DNA from: a virus | IMG/VR virus record: IMGVR_UViG_3300050016_000310 | Strand: one strand, 5' to 3' | DNA length: 64,000 bases | Shown here: positions 3,182 through 49,959 of the stretch, in pieces | How positions within the stretch are numbered: the stretch's first letter is position 1 | Layout: each line of letters starts with the position of its first letter | The notes under the pieces: generated by a model | Told to the model about the DNA's origin: nothing | Databases searched by the model: none | Seen by the model: only the letters and a program-made list of their open reading frames with translations | Translations under genes and position numbers: made by a program

Positions 3182-4147
3182 ATGGCAACCATGCGGGGCC
3201 CCAACCCTCTACGCAATGTGCGGCAAGCAGTTCCTGACCGCACAGAAGCACCCAGCCGCACCGCCGTCCTCGAAGATCAGGTCCATCAACAAATGGTCGA
3301 TCAGTTCCTTCCCCAAGTCGCAGAAGAGAGCGAACAAGCAGCCAAGCCCGCTCGCGTCGCTTTCCTCTATTACAGGAAGAAGCGCACAGGCCGCCGCTGC
3401 TCCTGCTACCACGTCGAGACGACCCCCGAAGGCCAATGCCAGATCTGCTACGGGGGCGGCTTCGTGGGTGGTTGGGACCTCCACGGCTGCCGCACGGAAT
3501 GGATCGACGTGACCCATGAGAACCTCCGGCTCGTCAATTGCCGGGCCGACTTCAACGCCGGTACTCGACCGATCTACTTTACCATCGATAGTGGGGAGAC
3601 CTCGGCCTTCATTGAGACTGACATCAACGTCCTGCGAAACATCCAGCGCCTGGAGGGCTTCCAGCTCGGCGTCGGCAACCGCCAGAAGAACTCTTCCATC
3701 CAGGCATTCGTCCAGGCGGAGGGCGACCTCGCCCCCGTCCCCTTCACCGAAGCGGCCCTCAATGCGCGCCTGGGGAACTTGAGCCTGAAGATTCGCATCG
3801 AGCTGAAACGGAACAACACTTCAATCGAATCGCCACGCCTCAGCCACCTAATGATTCGCTACCGGCTGATCCCTGAGATCAAGATGTTCGGCGACATGAA
3901 CCTGGGTGACAGCTCGTTTGAATTGGGAGATTTGGGTTTTACCGACACCTTCACGACCTTGAGTCTCTTCCTGCCAAAGAGCTTCGACTACGTGAGCAAC
4001 GAGGATTTCATGGTCAGGCTTTCCGACCAGAAGCGGTTCAAGGTGACGAAGTTCACCCGCAACGCCGTCTCCGGGATCCTCCTCAGCCATTTGGTCCTGG
4101 CCCGCCTGCTGGTCCCGGGGACGGATCTGCTGAACAGTTTTCCTTGA
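3182..4147 (+). CDS. Hypothetical virion (neck/head-completion-like) protein with Cys cluster
   Basis: 321-aa ORF with RRCSC...CQICYGGG motif; structural role is inferred. Confidence 0.45.
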   Translation: MATMRGPNPLRNVRQAVPDRTEAPSRTAVLEDQVHQQMVDQFLPQVAEESEQAAKPARVAFLYYRKKRTGRRCSCYHVETTPEGQCQICYGGGFVGGWDLHGCRTEWIDVTHENLRLVNCRADFNAGTRPIYFTIDSGETSAFIETDINVLRNIQRLEGFQLGVGNRQKNSSIQAFVQAEGDLAPVPFTEAALNARLGNLSLKIRIELKRNNTSIESPRLSHLMIRYRLIPEIKMFGDMNLGDSSFELGDLGFTDTFTTLSLFLPKSFDYVSNEDFMVRLSDQKRFKVTKFTRNAVSGILLSHLVLARLLVPGTDLLNSFP

Positions 4148-4631
4148 TGTGAAATGACTTCCGGCGTCCAAACTCTGAAATTAGAACCGCATCGACAATG
4201 CCGTCATGAGGGTTTTTATGTTTGGGCGTCAGTCTAAAATCCACCCCTGGAAAAAGCCGAGCAATGGCGATAGCTGATTTTGCTTTGGCTTTCAGGTTGG
4301 AGTCGATGCCCTGGTGCATCTCCTTTCCCCACTTGGCGGCTTCAATAAAGGTAATCGGATATTTTTGCTGCCAAATCATCTGCTCCAGCATCCCGAGCAT
4401 CCGACCAAAGGTCATGGCGGAGGAGCCGGTCATCGCATAAGGCGTGATTCGCTCAAAGAAAATATGGAAGGAGCCTAAAGCAGCCCACTCCGTAAAGAGA
4501 TTTGAAGTCGCCTGCTTGTCCAGATCCTTAGCTGCATCGATCGGCATCACCCGTTTGTCAATAATGCCGCCCGTGGGATTGAGCAGGACCAACGCGCCGC
4601 TCTGTCCCGGATCGATTCCAAGAATGTTCAT
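4083..4631 (-). CDS. ruvC: RuvC-like Holliday junction resolvase
   Basis: ILGIDPG, FFER, FGRMLG and HDGIVDAVLI motifs supply the acidic catalytic residues. Confidence 0.85.
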   Translation of the reverse strand: MNILGIDPGQSGALVLLNPTGGIIDKRVMPIDAAKDLDKQATSNLFTEWAALGSFHIFFERITPYAMTGSSAMTFGRMLGMLEQMIWQQKYPITFIEAAKWGKEMHQGIDSNLKAKAKSAIAIARLFPGVDFRLTPKHKNPHDGIVDAVLISEFGRRKSFHIKENCSADPSPGPAGGPGPNG

Positions 4632-5198: not shown

Positions 5199-7748
5199 CT
5201 ACTTGGCCTTATTGTTTTTCAACGATTCGATCTGCTTACCTAACTCCTCGATCCTTTTCTTGTCCGCTGGAGTCAATTCCGATTCATGTTTATCTTCGAG
5301 TTTAGCCATCTCATCTTCCAAAGAGACAAGCTCTCCGGAAGCGGCTTCCAAGATTTCCAGCGCGGCTTTCGTGCGCAGGACCTTCTTCAGACCCTGGTAC
5401 TTCACGAAGTGCTCGGGAGAGGCTTTGGTCTTCTTGCCCTTCCCCTTGCCTGCCTTCGTCCGTTTGCCCTTGCCCTTCTTGGCGCGAGCTTCGACGACCG
5501 CAAGAGCCGCCGCGATGCCGGGATACTGCGCGGCATTCACATCGAGATGCGTGACCATCTCTTTGACCTTGCCGCCGGTCATGGGAGGCAGCAAATCTTC
5601 GCCCCCCTCATCAACACCTTCTTCCGCGCCTTCGCCTTCTTCCGAGCCGCCTTCGCCCATGAAGGGCTCGACCGCCATCAGGATCTCTTCCGCCCACTCA
5701 CGGTCCTGCTCCTTGGCGCCGTCGTCCAGCTGGTCATAGGGGACCATCCGGGGCTCCCACTCAGTCTTCAGCTCCTCGCTGACTTCGCCCTTTACCGATT
5801 CGGCAAACTCCAGCCATTGCTCATGGGCCACGGCAGCCAGGGCTTCAACCATTGCGTCTCGTTGTTCTTTTTCCATAGATTCCTCTGCTGCCTGAACCGA
5901 GTTGTTGACCCTCGGGCTGTGGTTGACGAAAATATATTCGAAGCCGTCCTTCTCCGCCTGCTCGATTGCGTCTTCGATGTCGCGCTCTTCCGGATCCTCA
6001 AGGTGAATCCCGATCATGCCTCTGTGCGAGGGATGCGTCTCCTGCACGATCTTGATGACGTTGCCGTCACCCAAATCCACTTCCCGGATCGGCTTGGGTG
6101 GATTGAGCGCCATCTTCTGCGCCATCGGTTCGACCCCCAGCTTTTCGTACATCTGCTGGGGGGAATCATCCTCATCAAACGGGCTCGCCGCTTCCACCGT
6201 CGGATAGCTTCGTTCCGCGCTGGATTTGGAGCCGTAGAGGCTGTGCAGCTTCTCCTTGGCGTTCTCCAGCTTCTTCTTGTCCTCGGCGCTGAGATTTCCC
6301 CCGGCCCGATTGATATAGAAATTCAACCGAGACATCGCCTGCTTCAGATCCTTCGCCCCACGCTTCAAACCTTCCGCGATCTTCTCAGCCGACTGCTTAA
6401 AGAAGCCTTCTTTGGGGTGCCATTCGGGTGAAACATTATGCGACCACTTCTTGGCCGTAACGGCTCCCTTGGCAGGGCCGTCGCCCTTCTCCACCACCCC
6501 GGCGGGCGGATTGTGGCCGGTGACTTCGATTACATCACCATCCTTGCTGACGATGTAGCCACCAAAGAGGTTGTTGTCTTTCTTCCACTTCCAGTTGCCC
6601 TGGCCGAAAAGGCGGTCCGCTTCCCGCTCGGCTTCGCCCTTGGGATCGCCTGAGATGTACTTCATCCAAGGCTTGCCCATGGCGGACGATTCGTCGTCAT
6701 GGATCAGAAGCCGGTCCCAAACTTCTTTGTTGCCCGCCGCCACCCGCATGTAGCCCGGAGGGAATTTTTCCTTGGCCGCAGACTGCGCCACTTCAGCTTC
6801 CTCGAAAGCTTTGACCAACGAGTAGGATTGGAGAGACGCCAACGCCTCTGGATTGGGTGGGAGCGCGGGCGGAGGCGTGTCCTTCGTTTCCTGCAATCCC
6901 CCCGTCTCGTCCAACTCCTTGCCCAACTCCACCAGAACTTCCTGAGGCACTTCGTTCGTAGAAGGCCCATGGTGGTCCTTCGCCAGTTGAATGTAATAGG
7001 CGTCCGTCTTGGGTTCCGCAGCCGACTGGGCCTTATCCGGATCCATCGAGGTACCGTCCAGGCAAGCGTCTCGGCCATCGTCGTAATTCTTGCAGCCCGC
7101 GCCGGGGCCATTGACGGGGGCTGGGGCGGCTCCGGCCGCCTCATTCCCGCGCTCCTTCGGTTCGCTATCGACAGAAAGAATCGAGCCGGGCCCACCAAAC
7201 TTCTCGACCATCTCCTTGACGGCCTGGATATCCTTCGGATCTTGGATGTCCACCCAGAACTCAATGACACCTGCCTTCCGCTCATCCGCAGCCGCCCCGC
7301 ATTCAAACTTGCCTTCCATCTCGGCGGCCAGCTCTTCCGCGTTAATCAGAGAATCTTCCCCACCGGGATCTTTGACTTCGAGGTGCATGGCCCAGTCTCG
7401 GATTGATAGGGTGTCGTCACCGCCCGTGCTCACAGTAGGTCCCTTGGCGGGCTCGGGGCTCTTGTTAGTCCAGTGCTGTCCATAAAAATGAGTCACCTCA
7501 TAGGGGGGCTTCGAATCGTAATGGGTTTCCTCGATCCACTTCGTAAGACCTGCGACATCCAAATCTTTTAGATTGGTGTCTTGAATGTAGACATACTCGT
7601 GGCCGTTGATCGATCCGATCACGTCGCCTTGCTTCTCCACGAATTCAATCTTGCCCTCGGGGCTATCAATCGTTTCCTTGCCACCCACGGCGGGACCGGA
7701 AGCGGTCGTTTTTTTAAGCTCTCTCCAGGCTGCTTGAAGTGAGGACAT
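5199..7748 (-). CDS. Large acidic mosaic protein with DUF3175-like and RyR-like domains; probable internal head protein
   Basis: KKWS...AMSRLNFYINRAGGNL...AKEKLHSLYG resembles DUF3175; AHEQW...VPYDQLDDGAKEQDR resembles the RyR domain; lies directly downstream of the putative protease. Confidence 0.6.
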   Translation of the reverse strand: MSSLQAAWRELKKTTASGPAVGGKETIDSPEGKIEFVEKQGDVIGSINGHEYVYIQDTNLKDLDVAGLTKWIEETHYDSKPPYEVTHFYGQHWTNKSPEPAKGPTVSTGGDDTLSIRDWAMHLEVKDPGGEDSLINAEELAAEMEGKFECGAAADERKAGVIEFWVDIQDPKDIQAVKEMVEKFGGPGSILSVDSEPKERGNEAAGAAPAPVNGPGAGCKNYDDGRDACLDGTSMDPDKAQSAAEPKTDAYYIQLAKDHHGPSTNEVPQEVLVELGKELDETGGLQETKDTPPPALPPNPEALASLQSYSLVKAFEEAEVAQSAAKEKFPPGYMRVAAGNKEVWDRLLIHDDESSAMGKPWMKYISGDPKGEAEREADRLFGQGNWKWKKDNNLFGGYIVSKDGDVIEVTGHNPPAGVVEKGDGPAKGAVTAKKWSHNVSPEWHPKEGFFKQSAEKIAEGLKRGAKDLKQAMSRLNFYINRAGGNLSAEDKKKLENAKEKLHSLYGSKSSAERSYPTVEAASPFDEDDSPQQMYEKLGVEPMAQKMALNPPKPIREVDLGDGNVIKIVQETHPSHRGMIGIHLEDPEERDIEDAIEQAEKDGFEYIFVNHSPRVNNSVQAAEESMEKEQRDAMVEALAAVAHEQWLEFAESVKGEVSEELKTEWEPRMVPYDQLDDGAKEQDREWAEEILMAVEPFMGEGGSEEGEGAEEGVDEGGEDLLPPMTGGKVKEMVTHLDVNAAQYPGIAAALAVVEARAKKGKGKRTKAGKGKGKKTKASPEHFVKYQGLKKVLRTKAALEILEAASGELVSLEDEMAKLEDKHESELTPADKKRIEELGKQIESLKNNKAK

Positions 7749-13650: not shown

Positions 13651-14175
13651 ATGAAGTTGAGCCACGACCGGGCCCTGAAGGACCGGGGCTGGAAAAGCCC
13701 CGCTGAACTTCCCAAGGGTCCGAATGGCTATGCCCTCTGCCGCCAATGCCAGACCGAGGTCAAGCCGCCGCAGCGGACCTTTTGTTCTCAGGCGTGTATT
13801 CATACTTGGAAGATCCGCTCCAGCCCGAGCTACGCCCGCGAGCAAGTCTTCCTCCGAGACAAAGGTGTCTGCGCGGTCTGCAAGCTCGATACGGAGAAGC
13901 TCCGCGAGATCCTCTATGCGATCCGCATCCAAAGCGAGGAACATTACCAACAATTAACTGTTCTGTATCGGCTGAAGTATGGTTTCGGATTCAATCTTGC
14001 GGCGCATTTCTTCGAGATGGATCATATTCTCCCCGTTGCACAGGGGGGAGGATCCTGTGGATTAGAAAATCTACAATCCCTGTGTTTACCCTGCCACCGA
14101 GATAAAACGAGGGAGCAGATGCGAGCTAAGCGGCTCAGGCGCAAGGGCCGCCACCCGGGGAATTCCCGGTTTTAG
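13651..14175 (+). CDS. HNH endonuclease with N-terminal zinc finger
   Basis: CRQC...FCSQAC; EMDHILPVAQGGG...ENLQSLCLPCHRDKT. Confidence 0.85.
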   Translation: MKLSHDRALKDRGWKSPAELPKGPNGYALCRQCQTEVKPPQRTFCSQACIHTWKIRSSPSYAREQVFLRDKGVCAVCKLDTEKLREILYAIRIQSEEHYQQLTVLYRLKYGFGFNLAAHFFEMDHILPVAQGGGSCGLENLQSLCLPCHRDKTREQMRAKRLRRKGRHPGNSRF

Positions 14176-15195: not shown

Positions 15196-15705
15196 TTGCG
15201 TACCTTCGTGTGTGAAATCTGCTCACGTGCCCAGCCTGAATCCCTCCACAATTCGCATCACAAGATCCCCCAGTCCCTAGGGGGACCGGACGACGCGTCC
15301 AACAAAGTGAACCTAGATTCCGGTTGTCACCAAAACCTCCATTCTATTGCATACATGATGCTGAATCCCAAAAGGCAGCACGAAGTCGAACCGACCTCGG
15401 TCGCGCTCTTTCCCCATGACACGAAGGCCAGGGCCAAGCTGATCGAATTCGCCCGACTGGTCGCCCGCGAGATGTCGCTCCGGAAGGAGATCCGGAAGGC
15501 GCCGGGGGAAGAGGTCCGGACGATGATCGAACTGCCCGGCCTCTATCTGGAGCTGATCCGTCTGGCCGGGTACGACATGCCGAGCGCGGCCGGGAAGCCT
15601 GCGGGGGTCGCCCGCGTGCTTCGCACCTGGGTCGCCCAGGAGCTGATGCGGAAATTTCCCCTGCGGCGCTCCGAGATCGAGGCATATCGCAAGCCCCGGA
15701 AGTAG
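15196..15705 (+). CDS. HNH-like protein with possible C-terminal ribbon-helix-helix
   Basis: CEIC...HHKIPQSLGG...NKVNLDSGCHQNLH. Confidence 0.65.
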   Translation: MRTFVCEICSRAQPESLHNSHHKIPQSLGGPDDASNKVNLDSGCHQNLHSIAYMMLNPKRQHEVEPTSVALFPHDTKARAKLIEFARLVAREMSLRKEIRKAPGEEVRTMIELPGLYLELIRLAGYDMPSAAGKPAGVARVLRTWVAQELMRKFPLRRSEIEAYRKPRK

Positions 15706-33861: not shown

Positions 33862-35532
33862 CTACTTCTTTTTCTTGGCGGCCTTCTTAGTGGGTTTGGC
33901 GGCCGGTTTTTTGTGTCGCTTCTTGCCAACTTTTTTGCTGACTTTTTTCTTTTCCGGTTCCGGCACCATGTAGCCGGTGTCGTGCAGCCGCTCAGGGAAG
34001 CGCTCGATCGCGGCCGACTCGTCAAAGCCGTTATCGTAGCTCCAATCTTTCCCGATAGGAGTTTCGGTTTCGAGGTGGTATCCAGACCCGGCGCCGTTTT
34101 CCGACAGGTTGTTGAAAATTCTCGCGAGCGGAACCACCAGATAAAATTTCCCGTCCGATAGAACGGTGGACTCTCCGTTGGGAAACTCAATACCCTCCAG
34201 CTCTCGGACGATCATCTTGTACATCTCGTCTTCGGTGCCTACCTGATGCCCGTCGTGAGCGGCATCCCGGAGTGCCTGGATCAAGTCCTCCGGCAACTCG
34301 TCCGCATGCTGCTTGTACCAATCCCCATTACTATAACCTTTGGAGGGGGACGAATCGGTCTCCCGCTCGACCTGCTTCACCGCTTCCTGAATCTTCGCAT
34401 AGGTCAGAGGATTGTCTTTTTGAAGGCTATCGATCAGCTGGGTGCAATCCAAATATTCAAGATCGTCAACGTCACTGTAGTAATCAAAATCTTCCATGGA
34501 GGGCAGGTCTACCTTGGCGCCCAGATCTTTCAACTTTTGGGAAAATTCTTCCGGGTAAGTACCATATAGCCAAACGTCATCCCCCTCCAGAGAGATCTCG
34601 GAACCCTCCCCGTCTTTGCTCAGGTTGTGGAACATCTGCTGAACGACTTTTTTAATCAGCTTCGGCTTATTTTTGACCACTTCGATATCTTGGACTTTGC
34701 CGTCCAATTTAATCAAACCGGCATTGCTCAAATCGCGACTATCCACATCCGCCGTTTTGAAATCGGTGAGTAGGAGATCCTTCACGTAGGAGTGATATTT
34801 TTCAACTACCTCCGCATTGCCTTTGCCCTTGATCTGATTGACGGACTTGCTGGTATCAGCACCGTGTCCGTGCAACCCCACCTCGATCGTCACGTGAGGT
34901 TCGTTCTGCGGATCCCTAAGAGAGAGGATCTGGACATTCCCTGAGTTTACATTTCTCCAGTAGCTTCCCACGCAATGGCCCATCTTGGTACCCTCTTGCG
35001 ACAGGGTCGCCTCAGAGGTTAGATCACGCCAGGTAAATCCATCCGAATACTTCTTGAAAATCTTCTCACCCTCAAGCGCTTCCCCTTGATCGACCTTCTT
35101 CTTGGTCAGCTGCTTTGTCCACGCGTCCGACTGCTTGAGTGCCTCCGGCACCGTCAGGGCATCGAGCTTAGCCGGAGCCTGCTCCGACTTCAGATAATCG
35201 ATGACGTGACGGATCTTGTCCCGAAGAGGCTTGTCGATCTGGACCCTGAAAATCTCTTTGCCTTCATCCAGGGCCTTTTGAAGCCAGGGGGGTGATGTCG
35301 GATCAGTCTGATGAACCTGCCGGGCCTCTTCGTAATCCCGAATCAGATACTTGCGGAGGTTCGAGTTCAACCATTGGCGGATCGGTTCGTCTTCCTGAAC
35401 CCCCACCGTCTGCACGAACCGGTCAATGTCCTCGACGTTGACGACGTTGCGCGCCAACACCACCTGGGCGAGCGTCCGGTATCGCCAGTTATTTCCAAGG
35501 ACTTGCGCGAGGGTGGGATAACGCGGCGGCAT
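33862..35532 (-). CDS. PcfJ-like domain protein, paralogue of 30149-31537
   Basis: LARNVVN, EGTKMGHCVG, ILSLRDPQNEPHVTIE, QIKGKGN. Confidence 0.8.
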   Translation of the reverse strand: MPPRYPTLAQVLGNNWRYRTLAQVVLARNVVNVEDIDRFVQTVGVQEDEPIRQWLNSNLRKYLIRDYEEARQVHQTDPTSPPWLQKALDEGKEIFRVQIDKPLRDKIRHVIDYLKSEQAPAKLDALTVPEALKQSDAWTKQLTKKKVDQGEALEGEKIFKKYSDGFTWRDLTSEATLSQEGTKMGHCVGSYWRNVNSGNVQILSLRDPQNEPHVTIEVGLHGHGADTSKSVNQIKGKGNAEVVEKYHSYVKDLLLTDFKTADVDSRDLSNAGLIKLDGKVQDIEVVKNKPKLIKKVVQQMFHNLSKDGEGSEISLEGDDVWLYGTYPEEFSQKLKDLGAKVDLPSMEDFDYYSDVDDLEYLDCTQLIDSLQKDNPLTYAKIQEAVKQVERETDSSPSKGYSNGDWYKQHADELPEDLIQALRDAAHDGHQVGTEDEMYKMIVRELEGIEFPNGESTVLSDGKFYLVVPLARIFNNLSENGAGSGYHLETETPIGKDWSYDNGFDESAAIERFPERLHDTGYMVPEPEKKKVSKKVGKKRHKKPAAKPTKKAAKKKK

Positions 35533-35545
35533 ACTTAAAACTAAC

Positions 35546-35686
35546 CTATCTGCCCGTCATCCTCAGGTACTGAGCATACACCAGCAGCCCGGCCGCAATC
35601 ACAAGTAAGACCCCAGCCCGCCTACAGATTTTCCTAAAATGCTCTCGCTGGCGAGACCAGATCCGAACGATTTCCTCATCCATCAT
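35546..35686 (-). CDS. Small membrane protein (46 aa)
   Basis: Manual translation MMDEEIVRIW...GVLLVIAAGLLVYAQYL. Confidence 0.5.
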   Translation of the reverse strand: MMDEEIVRIWSRQREHFRKICRRAGVLLVIAAGLLVYAQYLRMTGR

Positions 35687-35857
35687 CCCCCTGCCTTACA
35701 CCGCCGCCCGCCTCGCGTCAAATCGACCGGGCATTCTGCAATTAATTTGACTTGAACCGTCAACCCCGCCGGGGTAGGCACAAAGGACACGTCGATCCCG
35801 GTCCAAACGACTCCAAATAAGATGGACCACTCTCCTTCACCACTCAAAGGAAACTAG

Positions 35858-37318
35858 ATGTCAAAAAAAGTGAAAGCTCCCAAGAAAGAAAAGATCGCGA
35901 AGGTCACCAAGGTCACGAAGGCCAAGAAGACGATCGCGCAGGATGAACCCGGCTCTCTCGTGGCCGGGTCCGCCAATCTCCAGGCGATCGAAGGCTTCCT
36001 AGAGAAGCAGCTCAAGTGGACGGATCGTGTCCGCGCCAAAGAAGTGGCGTCCAATGAAGCTCTCGACCTGACGCTCCCCCAGTTCCTCTCCAAGTCCCTC
36101 GAAGCCTCCGTGAACCAGGAGGACGAAGCCTACGCGGAAGCGCTGAAGGCCCGCTCGGCCGACGATAAGCACACGGCGATCGTCAAGATCATCGAAGCGC
36201 GCCAGCGGGCGCTCACCGACACGACCGAAGATGAAGCGGCCGTAGAGGAAACTCAATACCTGGATGACGCCGGGGCAGAGCCCGACGCACTGAAGACCCC
36301 CCGCAAGAAGGGCTGGCTGGAGCGCACGTTCGATGAACTTTGCGTCCAATACCAAGCAGATCCATCCGATGACGTCCGCGACAGCCTCTTGGGCCTCATC
36401 GCCCAGATGGAAACGAATCGCCGAGTCCGGTTCTTCTACGATCTCCAGCAGCTCCGAATCGGCGCCTCCAACCGCTCCTCGACCTACGCTCGCGAGTTCG
36501 GGGTCAAGGACAGCTTCATCGATTACGCAGGCACCCAGCTGGAACGGCTGGAGCGTCACAGCGAGAAGATGGTGGACCGGATCCTGGCCCGCTCACCTGA
36601 CGGCGAGTTCTACGCCTATCTGATCGAGACCTACCTGGGTGTCGGCACGATGATGGCTGGTTGCATGATCTCCGAGATCTCCGCGCCGGAGCGGTTCCGT
36701 ACCGTCTCCTGCCTGTGGAAGTACGCGGGGCTCGCGGTCGTCAACAACGATCCCGCGACCGGCCGGGGCGGCCATTCACAGCGTCGGATGAAGGGGGAGG
36801 CGGCGGCCTGGAATCATTTCCTGCGCACCAAGCTCCTGGGAGTCCTGGCAAGCTGCATGATTAAAGCCCAAACCCGTCACATCGGGACGCCCGAGGAGAG
36901 CACGAAAGGTCGGAACGTCAAGGTCCTGAACGACTACAAGAACCGGCTCGCGACTCAGAACGATCTGGTCCCGGCATCCCAGCGGGTCTATAACGCGAAG
37001 GGCAAGGAAATCTTCACGTACCAGACGAACAAGCCAATCCAGGTCTACTCGGAAACCAAGCAGGGGCTTGGGGAAGTCCGGCCGTGCGACATCAAGCGCC
37101 GCTCCAAGGCCCACATCAACAAGATGGCAACCCGGTACATGATCAAAATGTTCCTGGTTGAGATCCTGAACAAGTGGAGAAACCTGAAGGGCTATGAATC
37201 TCTCCCGACGTACGACGAAGCGAAGCTGCGCGGTGGGATTCCCCACGGCGGATTCAACAACCGTCCGCTCCCAGTTCCGGCCGGGCGGAATCTCCCGCAG
37301 CCCAATCAGCACGCGTAA
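35858..37318 (+). CDS. tasA: Tas-like (Nop/IS110 C-terminal-domain) RNA-guided protein without evident nuclease, with long N-terminal extension
   Basis: YDLQQLRIGASNR, GVGTMMAGCMISEI, FRTVSCLWKYAGL, WNHFLRTKL, YKNRL, HINKMATRYMIKMFL; immediately upstream of dual-repeat arrays. Confidence 0.8.
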   Translation: MSKKVKAPKKEKIAKVTKVTKAKKTIAQDEPGSLVAGSANLQAIEGFLEKQLKWTDRVRAKEVASNEALDLTLPQFLSKSLEASVNQEDEAYAEALKARSADDKHTAIVKIIEARQRALTDTTEDEAAVEETQYLDDAGAEPDALKTPRKKGWLERTFDELCVQYQADPSDDVRDSLLGLIAQMETNRRVRFFYDLQQLRIGASNRSSTYAREFGVKDSFIDYAGTQLERLERHSEKMVDRILARSPDGEFYAYLIETYLGVGTMMAGCMISEISAPERFRTVSCLWKYAGLAVVNNDPATGRGGHSQRRMKGEAAAWNHFLRTKLLGVLASCMIKAQTRHIGTPEESTKGRNVKVLNDYKNRLATQNDLVPASQRVYNAKGKEIFTYQTNKPIQVYSETKQGLGEVRPCDIKRRSKAHINKMATRYMIKMFLVEILNKWRNLKGYESLPTYDEAKLRGGIPHGGFNNRPLPVPAGRNLPQPNQHA

Positions 37319-37328
37319 AATTGCTATC

Positions 37329-37373
37329 CTAATGGCAAGTCTGGGGGCATCTTGGGCCTCAACTTGCCATTAG
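37329..37373 (+). other. Stem-loop between tas and array 1
   Basis: 12-bp inverted repeat CTAATGGCAAGT / ACTTGCCATTAG. Confidence 0.6.
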
Positions 37374-37399
37374 AATGGCAACTCGTTCTTTGAAAAGAC

Positions 37400-38210
37400 C
37401 TGCGCCTCAGAAACTTTGAAACCCCTACGGAAAGATGCGCGCCCTAGTAGAAGTGAAATCCAATAATAAGCTGCTTGCCTAGATGTACGTGACGCCCTAA
37501 TGCCGCCCGCGAGCCTTTTTCCCGTTGTCACCCTAAGGTGAAATGCCTGCCTTTGGCCCTCTGAAATCCTATCAGCTATTGCGTGCCTACAAAAGGATGA
37601 AACCCAACCTCAACGGCGTGCCTCCGAATCGTTTGAATCCCTGCCAATTAGTGCTGGCCTCCGTGGACGTATTGAAATCCAGAATTGAATTGCTTGCCTT
37701 GCTTTCTTTGACGCCCCGAACTTAATCGCGTGCCCCTGCGGTCCTGAAGCCCTAAAATAAAATGCTCGCCCCTTATTGAGTGACGAAGCCCATAAGTGAA
37801 CTGCGAGCCCTGGAAGGTCTCGAAACCCCTATTGACCTGTGCGAGCCCAGCGCCTGTGAAACCCATAAGGAACATGCGAGCCCTGAGAATTCTGAACACC
37901 CTCTTTGATCTGCAAGCCAAGGATCGTGTGAAACCCTTTATAAGATTTGCGAGCCTAGATGCGAGTCCTTATCCCCGATCTACGTTGCGAGCCCTGAGAA
38001 TTCTGAACACCCTCTTTGATCTGCATGCCAAAAAGTTAATGAAACCCCTTCTCGTACTACGTGCCCGAGCTTATTTGAATCCCCCGTCTAAGTGCCTGCC
38101 CCTGATCCATGAAACCCAGACCTGGGTCGCGTGCCCTTCGTGTCGTGAAACCCATAATCTTATTGCGAGCCTCTCCTCCATTGAAACCCTACATCTCAAT
38201 GCGTGCCTCT
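37400..38210 (+). repeat. TIGR-like array 1 (~22 units of ~36 nt)
   Basis: Alternating TGCGAGCC-like and TGAAACCC-like octamers separated by ~10 variable nt. Confidence 0.9.
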
Positions 38211-38279
38211 CCGCCGTCCGATAGTCCGTCACGGGCCTTGCAAGCTAGAGGGCACCTGGGGGCTAGGAAGGGACTTAAA

Positions 38280-38564
38280 ATGAAGCGACCTACTTGGCGA
38301 GGCTTGGTGTTCTTGAGTCTATTGAGCCTCGGCGGCTTCGCGCTCGCCGATGGCGGTCCCTCTCCTACCCCTTCAACCTCCCCCACGACTCAACCGACAG
38401 AACAACCAGCGCCCACTCCCCTCGTCACGATCCCACCCATCATCAACAGCTGCACGCTCGTTGGATGGGCAGAAGGCAATACCGTGCAACTCTACACGTG
38501 CCCCGTGAACGGAAAGACTTGTGTTCTAGCTGCGGGCAATACGACTCAGCTTACCTGTTACTGA
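38280..38564 (+). CDS. Small secreted Pro/Thr-rich protein with Cys-rich C-terminus
   Basis: Signal-peptide-like N-terminus MKRPTWRGLVFLSLLSLGGFALA; four Cys. Confidence 0.65.
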   Translation: MKRPTWRGLVFLSLLSLGGFALADGGPSPTPSTSPTTQPTEQPAPTPLVTIPPIINSCTLVGWAEGNTVQLYTCPVNGKTCVLAAGNTTQLTCY

Positions 38565-38902
38565 TCAGAAGGGTTCGCAAGCTCAACAAGGGTCTGGCCA
38601 TGACAGGGCAACGGAAAACAGAAACATCCGAGGACCAACCCCTTCAGTTCCGGGATCCGGGCCAGCACCTCCGGCTGCGCCCGGATCCATTCCCGATGCC
38701 GGGCAATCGCCTCTAAATGGCTCGTGACCTTCACGCGGACGCCCGGCCCCCACTGCGTGGCGAACGGATTCCCCCAAAACGAAGGGCGACCCACGAAAAT
38801 ATCGTAGGGCTGCCGGAGGCAATGGACGACGAGCTGTTTTTTTATTTGTGCTCGCACCAGCGGCAGATCCCGTGAAGAAACATATCCCAATCTCCAGTCC
38901 AC
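38558..38902 (-). CDS. DUF4326-like protein (start uncertain)
   Basis: DIFVGRPSFWGNPF...LKGLVLGCFCFPLPCHGQTL. Confidence 0.8.
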   Translation of the reverse strand: MDWRLGYVSSRDLPLVRAQIKKQLVVHCLRQPYDIFVGRPSFWGNPFATQWGPGVRVKVTSHLEAIARHREWIRAQPEVLARIPELKGLVLGCFCFPLPCHGQTLVELANPSDQ

Positions 38903-39188
38903 TTCTTACACTGGCGGCATCGGCTCTCGCCAAATCCCCCAACCCAATCCGCGATTCTTCCCGCCCACCTAGACATGCGCCCTTATCGCTCCCCCGCTCC
39001 GCCCTGTCCACTAGAAGTTGCTGCGGGCCATCGCTAGAAGTTAGAGTTCCCTATCTGGCCATATTATGGTTCATGATTTCTGATATTCGTTGTTTTAATT
39101 GCTGAATTTGACTCGCCCCAGACCATATTATGGTCTGACATCCCTAGAACTTACTGCCGCCTCTGCCCCTTTTGGTAAAAGGAAATCC

Positions 39189-39458
39189 ATGTTCGACTCA
39201 CTGAATTCCCCGCGCCACATGCTGCTCAACGCGCAACAGGCCAAGGAATACCTGGGACAAGCCGACCGCCCCGCGTGGCTCCAAGCCGAATGGCTCAGAC
39301 GTCAGGAAGCTGCCCAGATCCAGGCCGCCTTGCCTCCACCCCCACCCAAGACCTTCCGAGAATGCCTAGCCGAGATATCGGCGATGCCCTTGATGCCTCA
39401 AGATTACTACCTGACAGTGGGGCTCTGGGAAGATCTCTTCGATCACGACTGGACATAA
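39189..39458 (+). CDS. Hypothetical protein
   Basis: ATG with AAGGA RBS. Confidence 0.55.
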   Translation: MFDSLNSPRHMLLNAQQAKEYLGQADRPAWLQAEWLRRQEAAQIQAALPPPPPKTFRECLAEISAMPLMPQDYYLTVGLWEDLFDHDWT

Positions 39459-39484
39459 TTAATTTAACGCGATAGCCAATTAAT

Positions 39485-39823
39485 ATGATCCATCCCGGCG
39501 CCATCGTCACCGTTCCGATCCAGGGCAAGCTCGCTCGCTGCTACGTCAAAACGATCCACGTCAATGCGTTGCTCGAAGCGATACTCGATGTCTCCCCGGT
39601 GGACTCGCCGAACTATACGTGCCCGGTACGGGCGCTCAATGTCACTCACATCGAGAACCAGGGCAAGCCTCAGCAGTGGTACCTGGGGGTCCACCGGTCC
39701 TCCGAATATCCCTATCCCCCTCTCTTCCACATCCATTCTAACGGCGGCATACCTCCGTCCCGCCCTCTCCACCTCGACGGCACTCCCTTCACCCGAGAAG
39801 AACTCCGAGATACCCGGCGATGA
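39485..39823 (+). CDS. Hypothetical protein
   Basis: 112 aa, ATGA-coupled to the next gene. Confidence 0.6.
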   Translation: MIHPGAIVTVPIQGKLARCYVKTIHVNALLEAILDVSPVDSPNYTCPVRALNVTHIENQGKPQQWYLGVHRSSEYPYPPLFHIHSNGGIPPSRPLHLDGTPFTREELRDTRR

Positions 39824-40407
39824 GTACTTGGGATCAGATTGGAGGGTTCTGGGGACTCGGGATCAGCCTTGCCGTGCTCGTCCTCTGCACCTGGCGCATC
39901 GTAAAATTAAATCAGGCTGACCTCTGGCGGCGCGGGATCTGCCCCTACTGCCGGATCACCATCCAGAATGAAGCCTGCATTGCTTGCGAGAAAAAATCCA
40001 AGCGCTCTGACGAGATCATCCAGCGCGAAGGGCGCATCAACAAAATCATGCTGGAGCAGCGGGCCCGCCAAGAAGCCTGCAAAGCAGGCAGCGCACCTCC
40101 CCCACCCGATATGTCACTGACCGAATTCCAGGGACAGCTCCTGGTGGCGATCAAAAAGTCTCCAGCCGAATGGCACCAGTTCATTGACGATGTGGTGGCG
40201 GGGAAGCTCGATCCGGATCCCTGGTGGAAGATCAACCTGGCCCACGGCCGCGTGATCCTCCACTCCTACACGCCCCACTCCCCTACCCGCGCCGAGCTGG
40301 ACGCAATCATTAAATCAGGTCAGCACCTGCGCGGCCATGACGTGCAGCTATCTCCTGGGTACGTCGCGAACGGCTCGATCCAGGGTGCCGATCAATTCCC
40401 CAAGTAG
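39820..40407 (+). CDS. Membrane-anchored hypothetical protein with zinc ribbon
   Basis: N-terminal TM segment, CPYC...CIAC. Confidence 0.65.
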   Translation: MSTWDQIGGFWGLGISLAVLVLCTWRIVKLNQADLWRRGICPYCRITIQNEACIACEKKSKRSDEIIQREGRINKIMLEQRARQEACKAGSAPPPPDMSLTEFQGQLLVAIKKSPAEWHQFIDDVVAGKLDPDPWWKINLAHGRVILHSYTPHSPTRAELDAIIKSGQHLRGHDVQLSPGYVANGSIQGADQFPK

Positions 40408-40539
40408 AATTTTACATCTGGGTTTACACGATGGGCCCTAACGGCCCACAGCCCCACAGCGTTTCCCTCCAGGGGTCTTTTCATTTCGGCCGAATCTGTT
40501 AGGCTGCCCGGGCCTCTGCCCATAGGGTGAACCGTAGAG

Positions 40540-41885
40540 TGCGAGCCTTGTGATGGGTGAAGTCCCTCGTGTATTTGCGAGCCTATGCTCCTCTGAAAAC
40601 CAAAACCTAGATGCGTGCCCCAATGGAAACGAATTCCTCCGAGACATTGCGAGCCTTAAGAAAAATGAAACCCCTATCCCTGGCGCGAGCCCCAAAAGAA
40701 TTGAAACCCTAAAGACCCACGCGAGCCCTTTCATAACTGAAGCCCCGACCTTTGGTGCATGCCAGCCTCATTTGTAGCCCCATAAAGCATTGCTAGTCTT
40801 TTAACCCAATGCTAGGGAACGCGAGCCTCGATCTGCTTGCCGAATGATCTTTGAAAACCTGCCAATACCTGCTCGCCTTGAATAAGGTGAAGCCCAATGC
40901 TCACATGCGCGCCTTAAAACGACTGAAGCCCGATATGTGATTGCGTGCCTGATGACAGATGAATCCCTAGCAAGGAGGGCGAGCCCCATGTCTCATGCCG
41001 ACCTACCAGCTCGTGCTTGCCCGATAGAATGTTGAACCCCTAACTATCTCTGCGAGCCCGGCAGCCCATGAATCCCAAAAACTGCGAGCGAGCCACAGAT
41101 GAATTGAAGCCCATAACATGCCTGCAAGCCTGGATACTTTTTGCAACCCTAAGTAGCCCCGCGAGCCTTCAGCCCAGGTGACCCCCTATATAATTGTGCG
41201 AGCCTTCAGCTTTGTGAGATCCAATTTTGTTCTGCGAGCCTTCCCATTTTTGAAATCCTTCGATGAAGTGCAGGCCCTATCAAAAATGAAACCCAATGCT
41301 ATCATTGCGAGCCCTAGCTCCCATGAAATCCTCAATCGGTGTGCGAGCCCTAGCTCCCATGAAATCCTCAATCGGTGTGCGAGCCCTTCGTACAATGCCA
41401 CCCTGTGTACTGTTGCGTGCCTTACTGGCCACGAAACCCGCAACCAATCTGCACGCCGTCCATAAAGTGAACCCCTACAGAAACCTGCGAGCCTATACCG
41501 CTGTGAATTCCAAAAACCATATGCAAGCTCTTACATTTCTGAACCCCTAATTGGACATGCGAGCCTCCAGACATCTGATGCCCCAGTCCGTTCTGCCTGC
41601 CTCAAAACTTTTGAAACCCCTACGCCGATTGCGTGCCAGAAACTGTATGAACCCCATAGTGTTTTTGCGTGCCAAGACAGCACCGAAACCCCCCATTAAT
41701 GTGCGAGCCCCGTTCATGGTGAAATCCAAAACCACTCTGCGTGCCGACGAACCGGTGAAATCCCTAATCTGACAACGGGCCTTGACAGCCATGCCATCCA
41801 AAAATTCGGTGCAAGCCCAACCTCTCCTGAAACCCAAAAGGCACTTGCAAGCCCTTCAGTCCATGACGCCCTTTTAGTTGCTGCT
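40540..41885 (+). repeat. TIGR-like array 2 (~37 units)
   Basis: Same dual repeats and ~36-nt period; exact tandem unit duplication at 41306-41377. Confidence 0.9.
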
Positions 41886-41912
41886 GGCCCCCGGAGCAAT
41901 CCGGGGGCCTTT
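41886..41912 (+). terminator. Intrinsic terminator closing array 2
   Basis: GGCCCCCGGA-GCAA-TCCGGGGGCC followed by TTT. Confidence 0.75.
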
Positions 41913-41926
41913 AGTAAAAGCTTTCC

Positions 41927-42271
41927 ATGGCTACTACTCACGGTCTCATCGTCATGCTCAAGCAACCGGCAACCGTTACGGCCGATCTCGGCTTCCCTAT
42001 CGGCAGAATTCAGAAACTCCAGATCACCGCCTCTCTCGATGATGGCGGCCTTCTACGGGCGGTAGCGATCCAGCATGATCCTGACAAAAAGTCAGATCGA
42101 ATCCTTCATTTCATCGTACGAGAGATGGTCTTCACCGAAAAAGAACAAAAAGTTTGGGTGGACATAGACATAGAAGATGCTACCTCGATCCCCTACGGAT
42201 TTTACTGGGACGCCAAGAGAGGCAAAATTGACCGCTGTTATCCCCAGCCCGATTCCCAGAAGGTCACTTGA
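41927..42271 (+). CDS. Hypothetical protein (IPYGFYWD family; paralogue at 51405-51760)
   Basis: AIQHDPDKK...IPYGFYWDAKRG. Confidence 0.7.
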   Translation: MATTHGLIVMLKQPATVTADLGFPIGRIQKLQITASLDDGGLLRAVAIQHDPDKKSDRILHFIVREMVFTEKEQKVWVDIDIEDATSIPYGFYWDAKRGKIDRCYPQPDSQKVT

Positions 42272-42302
42272 CCTGAGCGGGCCGGTCAGATAGGCACGAA
42301 CC

Positions 42303-42944
42303 ATGGCAGATCTCCAGCTCCGCGAAGAAATCTCGTACCTCAAGCTCCAGCTCGACAAGACGGAGGGCCGCCTGCTTCTGCAAGCCGCCCACACCCACAC
42401 GCTCCGCGATGGGATCTATCAGATCGAGGCCGTCCTCCGCGACCGGAGCAGCCTAGTCCAAACCACCCTTGCCGTAGCAGAGAAGCTGCTGGCGCTCTCC
42501 CCCACCGACGACGAAACCGGCTTCATGACCCAGCTCCGGGAGACCGAGCTGGCGCTACATGCCGACCTCAAGGAAGCCCGGGTCCAGATCAACCGGCTCC
42601 AGGTCCAGCTGGATCTGCTCCAGGACCGCTGTCGCCAGGCCATTACGGCCCAACGGAACATGAAAGACCTGTCTGGGCCTGTCCATCGGATCGGCCTCGC
42701 CATTGCCAACCTGGGAGAGCCGGTGACCTCCACCGGGCTCCTGGCCACACAAAGCGTGGCCCGCGCGGGCGGGCTCATGAAGGCGGTAGAAATAGTCAAC
42801 TATCATGCTTCGCTCCCCAGCCGGAATGAAGCCTGGAAGGCCGCCTGCCGGGACATCGCCGTGAGCTGCGAGGCGACTGCCGGGCGGATCCTGCGCGGCG
42901 AATACGAAGAGCCCACGAGTGATGTGATGGGATCCCAGGACTAA
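42303..42944 (+). CDS. Coiled-coil hypothetical protein
   Basis: 213-aa Leu-rich helical ORF. Confidence 0.7.
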   Translation: MADLQLREEISYLKLQLDKTEGRLLLQAAHTHTLRDGIYQIEAVLRDRSSLVQTTLAVAEKLLALSPTDDETGFMTQLRETELALHADLKEARVQINRLQVQLDLLQDRCRQAITAQRNMKDLSGPVHRIGLAIANLGEPVTSTGLLATQSVARAGGLMKAVEIVNYHASLPSRNEAWKAACRDIAVSCEATAGRILRGEYEEPTSDVMGSQD

Positions 42945-42994
42945 GACACCCCGCACAATAAGCATAGCGTGGCGGTGCGCCCCATGGTATCGGA

Positions 42995-43575
42995 GGGGGC
43001 CCTCGGAGAGATGAAACCCAAAATGGTCTTGCACGCCTGATATGCATCGAAACCCAAAGAGCTGATGCGAGCCCTTGTTAACGTGACACCCCCGTCGTCG
43101 ATGCGAGCCTTAGAAATTTTGCCACCCGAATAAACCTGCGAGCCCTCGTATCCGTGAAACCCCTAAGTCTAGTGCAAGCCAGCTTGGGCGTTGAAACCCC
43201 TGACATTGCTGCAAGCCAAGTCCGTTTGAAACCCGAAGAGTGCATTCGAGCCCTGTATAGATTGGAACCCCTTGTGCCGTTGCGAGCCCAGGATGACGCG
43301 AAACCCCAAAGTATGGTGCGAGCCAGATTTCGAATCGAATCCCAAAAGTCGGTTGCGAGCCCCTGATGAAATGAAACCCAGACGTCTCCTGCAAGCCCCT
43401 CAGGATGTGGAACCCAAAATCATTATGCAAGCCTATGAGGCCATGAAAACCTAAACAACAACGCAAGCCTTCTCAATAGTGAAGCCCTGAAATATCGCCG
43501 CGAGCCAAAATCCTCCTGAAGCCCTTTTCATTTTTGCGAGCCTTAACAAGGCTGAATCCCTCCTTCTGTTTGCTG
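42995..43575 (+). repeat. TIGR-like array 3 (~16 units)
   Basis: Same dual repeats and ~36-nt period. Confidence 0.9.
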
Positions 43576-43607
43576 CCCTCCAGGAATCTCCTGGAGGGCT
43601 TATTTTT
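43575..43607 (+). terminator. Intrinsic terminator closing array 3
   Basis: GCCCTCCAGGA-ATC-TCCTGGAGGGC followed by TTATTTTT. Confidence 0.8.
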
Positions 43608-43612
43608 AGGGT

Positions 43613-43897
43613 ATGCGGTTCCCGACGGTTGAGCTAGTCCTCGCCTCCATGTACGAATTCAGACTCGTCGTCCAATATTCAAATGGGGAGCTGGAAGGCT
43701 TCGCCGGATCTAGCCTTTCCGAAAAAGGTGCCCACCAGGATGCTGAACGCAAGGCCCTGGACAAGATTGAAGAGCTTCAACGGTCCGGCAGATCCGGGCG
43801 GTTCCTCGGCCAAGCCGAGTACGAAAAACTCTCCCCCGAGAAGAAACAGGCGCTCAAGCAAGATTGGGAAATGTCTCTTCAAGGCAAAGGCGAATGA
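43613..43897 (+). CDS. Hypothetical protein with N-terminal FPTVELVLA motif
   Basis: 94 aa, ATGA-coupled. Confidence 0.65.
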   Translation: MRFPTVELVLASMYEFRLVVQYSNGELEGFAGSSLSEKGAHQDAERKALDKIEELQRSGRSGRFLGQAEYEKLSPEKKQALKQDWEMSLQGKGE

Positions 43898-44868
43898 ACC
43901 CTGTCAAGTATCCCCATCTTCACCGGGTCCTGGCCGCCGCCCCCCTAACAGGCTACAAAGTCATGCGCTACCAGCCCGTCCGGGGGCCTGGGGCGGGCGA
44001 TGCGGTGTCGGGCGCCGACTCCCGCATCAGCTTCAAACTCCAAAAGGGCGCCCGTGTCCAAATGCGGGACCCGGGGATCTGGATGAGCCTGAGCCGACAA
44101 TACGTGCTCGACCACTATTCAATCCACGACCAGAACGTACTCATCACGTTCGCGTTCAACCCGGCTGACGTGACCCACGGCAACCTGACGGACCGCGAGA
44201 CCGAGTTCACCGTCCCCTCCGCGATCATCAAAGACTTCGAGATCCTTCCGGCTGAAGACGACGCAGCTCAACCCGGCCGCCCCTTTGGTGCGCTCGCTCA
44301 AGTCCTCGCAGGAAAGCTCGACAGCTTCAACGTCTTCCGTGGCGTGAAGGACATCTATCTGAGCCAGGTCGATCCTCGCCATGTGGGTGATGGCTACTGG
44401 GGCCAGGGCACCTACTACGCTCTCTACAAAAGCGACGCGGAGGACTACGCGACCCAAGACATCACGGGCGAGATGGACCGGTGGGCCTTTGTCATCCAGT
44501 ACGCGTTCTCAGGATCCTGCAAAGAATTTGGCCAAGGCGAATTGCTGAACCTGGACAAAAATTATATGGGAGTGGATCTCCCGAAACGCTACCCACGCGA
44601 ATCGATTTTCGTACTGACCCAGGACGAAGATGGAATCAATCCGCCCGAGGGCGGAGAGCAAGTCCTCATCACCCAAAAAGCAAAGCCCACTCTCAAGGCC
44701 CAACAGTTCTGGGTCTACCTGGCAGAATCGGAGAACGCGGAGATCCTGGGCAAGATGTTCAAGCTGAAAATGGGGCCGCTCAATAGCGTAGGCCCGTTCA
44801 AGATGTCGATGGCCACCAAGATCGACAATGCTCTCAAGACTTTGGTCTACGCGCAGGTGGGCGAATGA
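43894..44868 (+). CDS. Putative two-domain ADP-ribosyltransferase-fold protein
   Basis: GIWMS...ETEFTV, and VFRG...GDGYWGQGTYYA...AEDYA; each domain preceded by a VLA motif. Confidence 0.55.
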   Translation: MNPVKYPHLHRVLAAAPLTGYKVMRYQPVRGPGAGDAVSGADSRISFKLQKGARVQMRDPGIWMSLSRQYVLDHYSIHDQNVLITFAFNPADVTHGNLTDRETEFTVPSAIIKDFEILPAEDDAAQPGRPFGALAQVLAGKLDSFNVFRGVKDIYLSQVDPRHVGDGYWGQGTYYALYKSDAEDYATQDITGEMDRWAFVIQYAFSGSCKEFGQGELLNLDKNYMGVDLPKRYPRESIFVLTQDEDGINPPEGGEQVLITQKAKPTLKAQQFWVYLAESENAEILGKMFKLKMGPLNSVGPFKMSMATKIDNALKTLVYAQVGE

Positions 44869-49584: not shown

Positions 49585-49959
49585 TCAAACCAACGGCTTC
49601 AGCTGATAGGTTCCGTCCGGCCGGAGTTGCAACTGAAAATTCCCCTTCACAAAGGACAACCCGCTCTCCCGGATAGCCTGAGCAATCAACTGAACCGTCT
49701 GATTCTTCCGGGTCGGCTCCCCATCAATAAACTTCAAAGCCTCCACCGAGATCACGTCGTAATCATCCGCCACCGCATGCGGAAGGAAGTCCTTCGAGTT
49801 GTTCGTCAGGATCGCCGTCCCCTCCGCCAACTCCCGGATCTCCTCATCTGCCATCCCCTTCTTCAAAACCAAAACCTTAAAGCCCGAATCTTTCAATCCG
49901 GCTTTCAATTGAAAGAGGTTCTCGTCCAACAGGATCGTAAGCTTCGAACGCAGGTCCAC
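49585..49959 (-). CDS. PIN-like (DUF5615/Mut7-C-type) domain protein
   Basis: ILLDENL...GMADEEI...ILTNNSKDF. Confidence 0.75.
   Translation of the reverse strand: MDLRSKLTILLDENLFQLKAGLKDSGFKVLVLKKGMADEEIRELAEGTAILTNNSKDFLPHAVADDYDVISVEALKFIDGEPTRKNQTVQLIAQAIRESGLSFVKGNFQLQLRPDGTYQLKPLV

Follow-up and report, generated by a model that had tools for sequence, protein, structure and literature searches.

A nuclease-lacking Tas protein with a predicted helical N-terminal domain, encoded beside three TIGR arrays in a phage genome

Introduction

What might a Tas protein do with an additional N-terminal region of about 186 residues that contains no nuclease? The question is raised by the tas gene at positions 35858-37318 (plus strand) of a 64,000-nucleotide stretch of viral DNA, IMG/VR virus record IMGVR_UViG_3300050016_000310 (hereafter the window, meaning the whole stretch analysed), whose 486-residue product, P0001, is accompanied by TIGR arrays on the same strand. 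TIGR-Tas effectors are in development as very small programmable DNA binders and cutters that require no protospacer-adjacent motif (PAM-free), and published surveys limit the accessory domains of dual-repeat Tas proteins to RuvC and HNH. Members without a nuclease, such as FpTasA, PlTasA and MbTasA, are termed TasA; by the original definition they consist of a Nop domain and nothing else (Faure et al., Science 2025, PMC12045711). Where Tas proteins have so far been reported with long N-terminal regions, these are disordered and belong to stem-loop clades, dual-repeat Tas proteins being compact with minimal variation (10.64898/2026.09.09.750476).

The present analysis followed up a preliminary description, made from the sequence alone, in which P0001 was regarded as a TasA-like binder with an unusual N-terminal extension and an internal insert. 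We consider it more likely than not (roughly 60%) that P0001 acts as the sole effector of a phage dual-repeat TIGR-Tas system, binding or repressing guided targets in the manner of TasA, and that its N-terminus adds a dimerisation module.

Results

Identity of the tas gene product

The open reading frame, which the preliminary description had placed at exactly these coordinates, is preceded by an AGGA-type ribosome-binding site 8-9 nucleotides 5' of the start. An AlphaFold2 model of P0001 was obtained with a 15-sequence alignment as input (mean predicted local distance difference test score, pLDDT, 71.8). When this model was compared with the PDB by Foldseek, ranks 1-11 were all TasH or TasR chains (9w04, 9vzx, 9w03 and 21kl; 9mty), with a probability of 1.00, template modelling (TM) scores by target of 0.51-0.66 and sequence identities of 17-22%; the IS621 and ISCro4 recombinases (8wt9, 8wt6 and 9t56) ranked behind them. 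A phmmer search of PDB sequences likewise matched TasR 9mty (E 1.1e-8), in which residues 1-118 lie N-terminal of the aligned core.

Profile searches delimited the same region. NCBIfam NF052498 (TIGR_Tas_endo) matched residues 190-441 over profile positions 5-215 of 215 (E 1.1e-25, 90.9 bits), PHROG 4285, labelled transposase, covered residues 191-458 (E 6.9e-24), and Pfam Transposase_20, which corresponds to the IS110 C-terminal or Nop-type region, was found at residues 255-314 (E 5.4e-6). P0001 therefore contains a Nop-type C-terminal domain with the TasR/TasH fold, the Tas Nop domain as a whole extending over residues ~187-465. The sequence strings highlighted in the preliminary description were located within it, YDLQQLRIGASNR at residues 194-206, YKNRL at 360-364 and HINKMATRYM at 419-428. 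The gene and its core domain are as follows:

35858-37318, plus strand: tas, encoding P0001, a nuclease-lacking Tas protein with an N-terminal extension (open reading frame, Foldseek, phmmer, NCBIfam)
36602-37252, plus strand: Nop C-terminal, guide-RNA-binding domain, residues 249-465 (Pfam, PHROG 4285, fold matches to TasH, TasR and IS621)

On the strength of its fold, array context and candidate processing dyad, P0001 is assigned to TIGR-Tas. It is TasA-like in the looser sense of a Tas protein without a nuclease, since the solo Nop domain by which TasA was first defined is exceeded here by ~186 N-terminal residues that include a conserved three-helix domain. In that looser sense the view of P0001 as a TasA-like binder was upheld: RuvC and HNH are lacking, the gene adjoins TIGR arrays of its own, and its role is best read as that of a guided DNA binder or a repressor.

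Layout and conservation of the N-terminal extension

Ordinary TasA-type relatives of ~290 residues, consisting of the Nop core only (P0016-P0038), begin at the equivalent of residue ~187 of P0001 in the alignment, so that the extension, previously put at ~190 residues, amounts to ~186. Two AlphaFold2 models concur on its layout, which comprises helices and disorder without any beta strand in residues 1-250. The segments of the extension and of the adjoining dimerisation hairpin are listed below:

35858-35968, plus strand: Lys-rich tail, residues 1-37, net charge +8, modelled as disordered (pLDDT 29-39), of variable length in the clade
35969-36229, plus strand: clade-specific three-helix domain, residues 38-124 (helices 38-65, 73-97 and 101-124), predicted second homodimer interface
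36230-36298, plus strand: acidic linker, residues 125-147, modelled as disordered (pLDDT <50 at 123-147), with disorder reaching ~152
36299-36358, plus strand: PRKKGWLE..FD motif and helix leading into the coiled coil, residues 148-167 (helix 153-167, pLDDT ~79-90)
36368-36589, plus strand: coiled-coil dimerisation hairpin of the Tas core, residues 171-244 (helices 171-214 and 219-244)

The extension from about residue 40 onwards, together with the internal insert, is common to 14 other protein clusters (44-62% identity, 376-480 residues), which form with P0001 a clade of 15; because both features are kept in these clusters, they cannot be attributed to chance or to a gene-calling artefact. 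Members are rare: out of 1.84 billion proteins, a profile built on residues 38-172 retrieved only seven representatives, each a clade member or a fragment, and IMG/VR contributed a single clade member among 117 Tas-like matches.

Conservation is uneven along the extension. The Lys-rich tail is short or absent in about half of the clade (shorter basic tails are also present in P0002, P0003, P0007 and P0011), while the helices are retained. The linker is acidic yet length-variable in most members, and segment 119-147 of P0001 carries a net charge of -9. In the motif that follows, R149, G152 and E155 are invariant and K150, L154, F158 and D159 nearly so; R188, N368, R376, Y378, E384 and R414 are also invariant across the clade. 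The core itself is modified, as the first coiled-coil helix is lengthened N-terminally, the coiled-coil tip is ~40 residues shorter than in short TasA proteins, and insertion 1 is ~14 residues shorter than in the ~290-residue relatives.

Absence of a nuclease domain

The preliminary description had reported neither RuvC nor HNH in P0001 and had proposed a fold-based examination of the N-terminus for a diverged version of either; the observation was confirmed, and by prediction the N-terminus folds as neither. Searched over its whole length, P0001 gave no Pfam match to DEDD_Tnp_IS110, RuvC or HNH, and no Cys/His metal-binding motif can be read in the translation of residues 1-190. A weak ATG101 match in the N-terminus (E 0.17) was discarded as noise.

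The RNase H-like fold of RuvC requires a five-stranded sheet, and HNH requires a beta-beta-alpha unit. The first beta strand of the P0001 model appears at residue 294 or later, and therefore neither fold can be accommodated upstream of it. P0001 thus lacks the N-terminal RuvC, active or dead, that characterises TasR, there being no Pfam match and residues 1-250 being helical or disordered in both models, and equally the N-terminal HNH of TasH, with no Pfam HNH, no strands in that region and no Cys/His motif.

The isolated N-terminal domain resembled no known fold above background. The best match among PDB folds (Z 6.0) was to a 57-residue helical hairpin, within the helical background, the best E value against AFDB clusters was 0.14, and searches of the ESM Atlas by features and by structure yielded TM scores of at most 0.35; such blank searches do not prove the fold to be new.

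Predicted homodimer

A controlled homodimer prediction for P0001 gave a score of 0.50, against 0.00 for three controls, with at least 66% of contacts in common among three runs and a partner pLDDT of at least 72. In calibration, the pass mark was met by 20 of 30 solved homodimers and one of 23 solved monomers, which is a rough guide here because the alignment for P0001 was one that we supplied. Dimerisation through the coiled-coil domain, as in other Tas proteins, is therefore found by prediction.

The predicted interface consists of two parts. One is the coiled coil at residues 181-238, with symmetric pairs 199:199 and 227:227 and further low-error pairs over 199-231. The other, which has the lowest expected error, involves the N-terminal helices 35-92 and 110-121, its lowest-error pairs falling within residues 40-81 and including 48:48, 52:52, 77:77 and 81:81; I44, L48, L73, L77, L81 and V85 at this interface are conserved hydrophobic positions in the clade. 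The coiled-coil part may mirror the likeness of P0001 to solved Tas dimers, whereas the N-terminal part cannot derive from a known complex, because the fold searches revealed no solved relative of the domain.

From these models, the three-helix domain (residues 38-124) most likely provides a second symmetric homodimer contact, which may compensate for the shortened coiled-coil tip. Coiled-coil tip, insertions and N-terminal domain are altered together, and the dimer scaffold looks rebuilt rather than merely decorated.

The internal insert

The insert of ~45 residues noted in the preliminary description was borne out as 42 extra residues (~371-412) relative to the ~290-residue relatives, lying between the YKNRL and K..H.N.MA.RYM blocks of the alignment, and in 12 of the 15 clade members the segment is exactly 45 residues long. 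It is modelled as follows:

36962-37096, plus strand: enlarged insertion 2, residues 369-413, modelled as beta hairpins (strands 394-397 and 403-407, pLDDT >90)

Here the HMMER alignment pairs ~20 residues of SpTasH (TasH 236-255) with P0001 399-418, which are preceded by 44 additional residues in P0001. The site corresponds to insertion 2, which is variable, longer in dual-repeat Tas proteins and a proposed molecular ruler (10.64898/2026.09.09.750476); SpTasH and PlTasA have a beta-hairpin there, near the displaced strand (10.64898/2026.08.11.744272). The insert of P0001 is thus an enlargement of a known variable Tas site and not a new position.

Guide arrays and candidate processing dyad

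TIGR arrays follow the rule of alternating repeats of 8-12 nucleotides that start with UG (box D) and end with CC(A) (box C), separated by spacers of ~9-12 nucleotides within a unit of ~36 nucleotides (PMC12045711). Three co-oriented arrays on the tas strand, amounting to ~75 units in all for one tas gene, were identified:

37400-38207, plus strand: TIGR array 1, ~22 dual-repeat units with spacers of ~10 nucleotides (repeat parsing)
40540-41889, plus strand: TIGR array 2, 37 units with the repeats of array 1 (repeat parsing)
42994-43578, plus strand: TIGR array 3, ~16 units with the repeats of array 1 (repeat parsing)

Each unit consists of an edge repeat resembling TGCGAGCC, ~10 variable nucleotides, an A-rich loop repeat resembling TGAAACCC and another ~10 variable nucleotides, with a period of ~36 nucleotides. 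Spacers of exactly 10 + 10 nucleotides occur in 53 of the 74 parsed units. Edge and loop repeats both start with TG and finish with CC, and the gene accordingly has adjacent arrays of the TIGR type. The same arrangement recurs in the clade, as a dual-repeat array directly follows tas in every member for which sequence 3' of the gene was available (L001, L002, L003/L004 and L006); these contigs also carry phage genes, encoding DNA polymerase A, terminase and endonuclease VII.

The ~75 units make a very large TIGR locus, the commonest published sizes being 5-15 units. Exact duplicate units stand apart from one another in array 1 (37875-37914 and 37986-38025), both containing the variant loop repeat TGAACACC, and an exact tandem duplication occupies 41306-41377 in array 2 (copies at 41306 and 41342); the duplicated units point to array growth by unit duplication or recombination. 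Unrelated small genes lie between the arrays, including an antisense DUF4326 gene at 38558-38902.

In SpTasH, Y289 and H296 are the catalytic residues for pre-tigRNA processing (PMC13421893), and a C-terminal Tyr/His dyad of the kind found in dual-repeat Tas proteins is present in the P0001 sequence:

37211-37246, plus strand: candidate pre-tigRNA processing dyad Y452...H463, with Y452 aligned to SpTasH Y289 (HMMER)

Since Y452 and H463 are invariant across the 15 clade members and their SpTasH equivalents are catalytic, P0001 likely self-processes its arrays. A Y...H pattern is also seen in short TasA proteins.

Between the gene and array 1 stands a further element:

37321-37381, plus strand: hairpin between the tas stop and array 1, with 20-nucleotide arms of 90% complementarity and a weak terminator-like inner stem (sequence)

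A GC-rich hairpin occupies the same place in relatives L003 (~6270-6300) and L006 (~4432-4465), whose flanking genes are otherwise unrelated. This hairpin may set the ratio of tas mRNA to guide transcript, either as a conserved attenuator or as an RNA-end element. An Rfam search of 35000-44000 at E values up to 0.1 returned no family, and a sigma-70 promoter scan of 35400-38400 found none.

Genomic neighbourhood

The window belongs to a large tailed phage from peat metagenomes, with genes for a tail fibre, a clamp loader, a DnaB-type helicase and an SbcD-like nuclease. When its open reading frames of at least 70 residues were compared by tblastn with the 6-10-kb flanks of five relatives, tas was the sole shared gene. 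The preliminary description had listed four in-trans nuclease candidates in the window, of which half stood. The HNH genes at 13651-14175 and 15196-15705 (both plus strand) were confirmed by Pfam, as ordinary free-standing genes that lie more than 20 kb from tas and are not syntenic; the supposed RuvC at 4083-4631 and PIN at 49585-49959 (both minus strand) remained blank in Pfam at E values up to 0.01. The two genes after array 3 were also blank in Pfam.

Other features of the surroundings were recorded in passing. The divergent neighbour at 33862-35532 (minus strand) encodes a PcfJ-like protein (Pfam E 9.9e-12) with a Lys-rich C-terminal tail resembling the N-terminal tail of the Tas protein. 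In three relatives, though not in this window, a large terminase gene (GpA_ATPase) is convergent with the tas-array module (L001, 8986-10605; L003, 7809-9431; L004, 4591-6213; all minus strand). The gene at 848-2716 (minus strand) encodes a collagen-like tail-fibre protein (PHROG 6320, E 4.4e-57), which accounts for the many 9-nucleotide tandem repeats at 135-2387. A distant Tas protein (L091) occurs on contig JAAFGT010000063.1 of an Acidipila sp. metagenome-assembled genome, from an Acidobacteriota bin; identity is 26% in the core, against 47% in the last 47 residues, and the protein was rejected as a clade member and as a clue to the host.

Discussion

Proposed mechanism

By homology with characterised Tas proteins, P0001 would dimerise and would cut array transcripts into tigRNAs of ~36 nucleotides, and the two ~10-nucleotide spacers of each guide would pair with opposite target strands. 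Since P0001 has no nuclease, it is expected to bind through both spacers and leave the target uncut, presumably bending the DNA as its homologues do. Once bound, it would block transcription or replication of the target, which is probably a competing mobile element or the host. In this scheme the three-helix domain would act as the second dimer contact, tethered to the core by the flexible acidic linker, while the Lys-rich tail may add a non-specific nucleic-acid contact and the 45-residue beta-hairpin insert would enlarge the insertion-2 site beside the DNA-unwinding junction. Work published in 2026 showed reversible, guide-dependent transcriptional repression by nuclease-free MbTasA, which acted on a reporter and on a chromosomal gene, and by dead TasR proteins (10.64898/2026.09.09.750476). 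By analogy with that work, the programmable repressor suggested in the preliminary description is a reasonable proposal, though no longer a new one.

Several observations weigh against this interpretation. The 90.9 bits obtained with NF052498 fall below the curated cut-off of 100, so that membership is not supported by score, whereas the short TasA relative P0016 reaches 141.7 bits; judged from its sequence, P0001 is a divergent Tas with a divergent core, which automatic annotation would not name. The three-helix domain is modelled with a pLDDT of just ~60-90, the alignment behind the predicted dimer interface has 15 rows, and models of this type readily pair amphipathic helices. The aromatic residue at the unwinding junction of SpTasH, W203, aligns with Leu327 of P0001, an equivalence taken from the HMMER alignment only. 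The guides gave no target. In the two possible two-strand geometries, rc(A)+B and B+rc(A), the best matches of 74 guides to the 64-kb window differed at 4 of 20 positions, as did those of shuffled A/B pairs. In 659 kb of collected locus sequence, 184 guides from this phage, L001, L002, L003 and L006 gave 18 matches with at most 3 mismatches, compared with 28 for the control, which leaves the biological role without an anchor. A single 20-mer guide compared with public collections would be expected to give ~0.2 or more chance matches.

Alternative explanations

The slot filled by the extension is the one that nuclease domains occupy in TasR and TasH, and catalytically dead RuvC domains are known in TasR, which raises the possibility that P0001 is a degenerate TasR or TasH whose N-terminal RuvC or HNH has diverged badly. 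With zero strands in residues 1-250 of two independent models, a blank Pfam result and fold matches no better than helical background (best Z 6.0; best AFDB E 0.14), this derivation is very improbable. Even harder to credit is that P0001 is the remnant of an IS110-family transposase and no Tas effector at all. The names attached to two of its matches, Transposase_20 in Pfam and transposase for PHROG 4285, would suggest such an origin, whereas the absence of the DEDD RuvC domain, the ranking of TasH and TasR above IS621 and ISCro4, an NCBIfam match to TIGR_Tas_endo and not to transpos_IS110, and the ~75 guide units 3' of the gene all contradict it.

Accepting P0001 as a nuclease-free Tas leaves other uses for the extension. 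As the preliminary description suggested, it could be a docking platform that recruits an in-trans effector, be it a nuclease of phage or host origin or a factor of transcription or replication, with the target then cut or modified by the complex. Conserved surface motifs such as PRKKGWLE..FD could form a binding site, a flexible acidic linker with a basic tail is typical of interaction hubs, TasA genes sometimes stand in an operon with ParB-like partners (PMC12045711), and the same phage has its free-standing HNH genes. Yet no partner is encoded alongside, tas alone being shared with the flanks of the five relatives; the HNH genes are distant and of a kind common in phages, open reading frames 4083 and 49585 lack any RuvC or PIN match, and the domain makes its most confident predicted contacts with the second copy of itself. 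Partner recruitment, that of a host factor included, consequently loses ground to homodimerisation and is regarded as a minority possibility. Rather unlikely is a role of the Lys-rich tail and helical domain mainly in non-specific DNA or RNA affinity, or in virion targeting for injection with the genome, in place of a dimer contact: the charge of +8 on the tail, the similar tail that ends the divergent PcfJ-like neighbour and the large-phage context fit with it, but about half of the clade has a short tail or none, the helices being kept, and nothing points to a virion protein or to packaging. Within the preferred reading of the three-helix domain as a dimerisation module, a bolder version may be entertained tentatively, in which the domain is a flexibly tethered second closure point across the DNA path, the dimer encircling DNA or the domain bridging two guide-loaded dimers.

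Comparison with known systems

P0001 resembles TasA in its Nop core with a coiled coil, the lack of RuvC and HNH, the adjoining TIGR arrays, its phage-borne location and its expected activity as a guided binder or repressor. Its closest relatives outside the clade are ~290-residue proteins with the Nop core only (E 1e-18 to 1e-10), none with a recorded Pfam RuvC or HNH. It differs from TasA in the ~186 N-terminal residues with a conserved three-helix domain predicted to be folded and in the 45-residue insertion 2, as well as in the loss of ~40 residues from the coiled-coil tip and ~14 from insertion 1. With TaTasR (9mty) and SpTasH (9w04, 9vzx and 21kl) it shares the core fold and UG...CC dual-repeat arrays, and with SpTasH also the Y/H processing dyad and a beta-hairpin insertion at the same site, the insert being about twice as long in P0001. 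In contrast to both, it has an all-helical domain where RuvC or HNH stands, and its identity to them is 17-22%. The likeness to the IS110/IS621 bridge-RNA recombinases is that of the Nop-type RNA-binding domain (Transposase_20; folds 8wt9, 8wt6 and 9t56), whereas the DEDD RuvC, the bridge RNA and the transposon ends are absent and guide arrays are found instead.

Full-text literature searches returned no paper on a folded N-terminal extension in TasA, although the catalogue of the 20,096-locus survey is not public and a prior listing there is possible. The novelty is confined to the architecture, as nuclease-free Tas proteins acting as repressors have already been published.

Significance

The clade shows that a folded module other than a nuclease can occupy the N-terminal slot of Tas, and that the scaffold of the core dimer, including the coiled-coil tip, insertion 1 and insertion 2, can be rebuilt around such a module. 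With ~75 guides on one protein, the locus also offers a rich natural case for learning what phage TasA proteins target. A second dimer contact, if true, may lengthen DNA residence, which would be useful for repressors and activator fusions. Closure around DNA or bridging of dimers, if true, would turn a compact binder into a topological roadblock or a DNA-looping silencer, and would establish a third class of Tas accessory module, structural and not nucleolytic, and the first of this type for dual-repeat systems.

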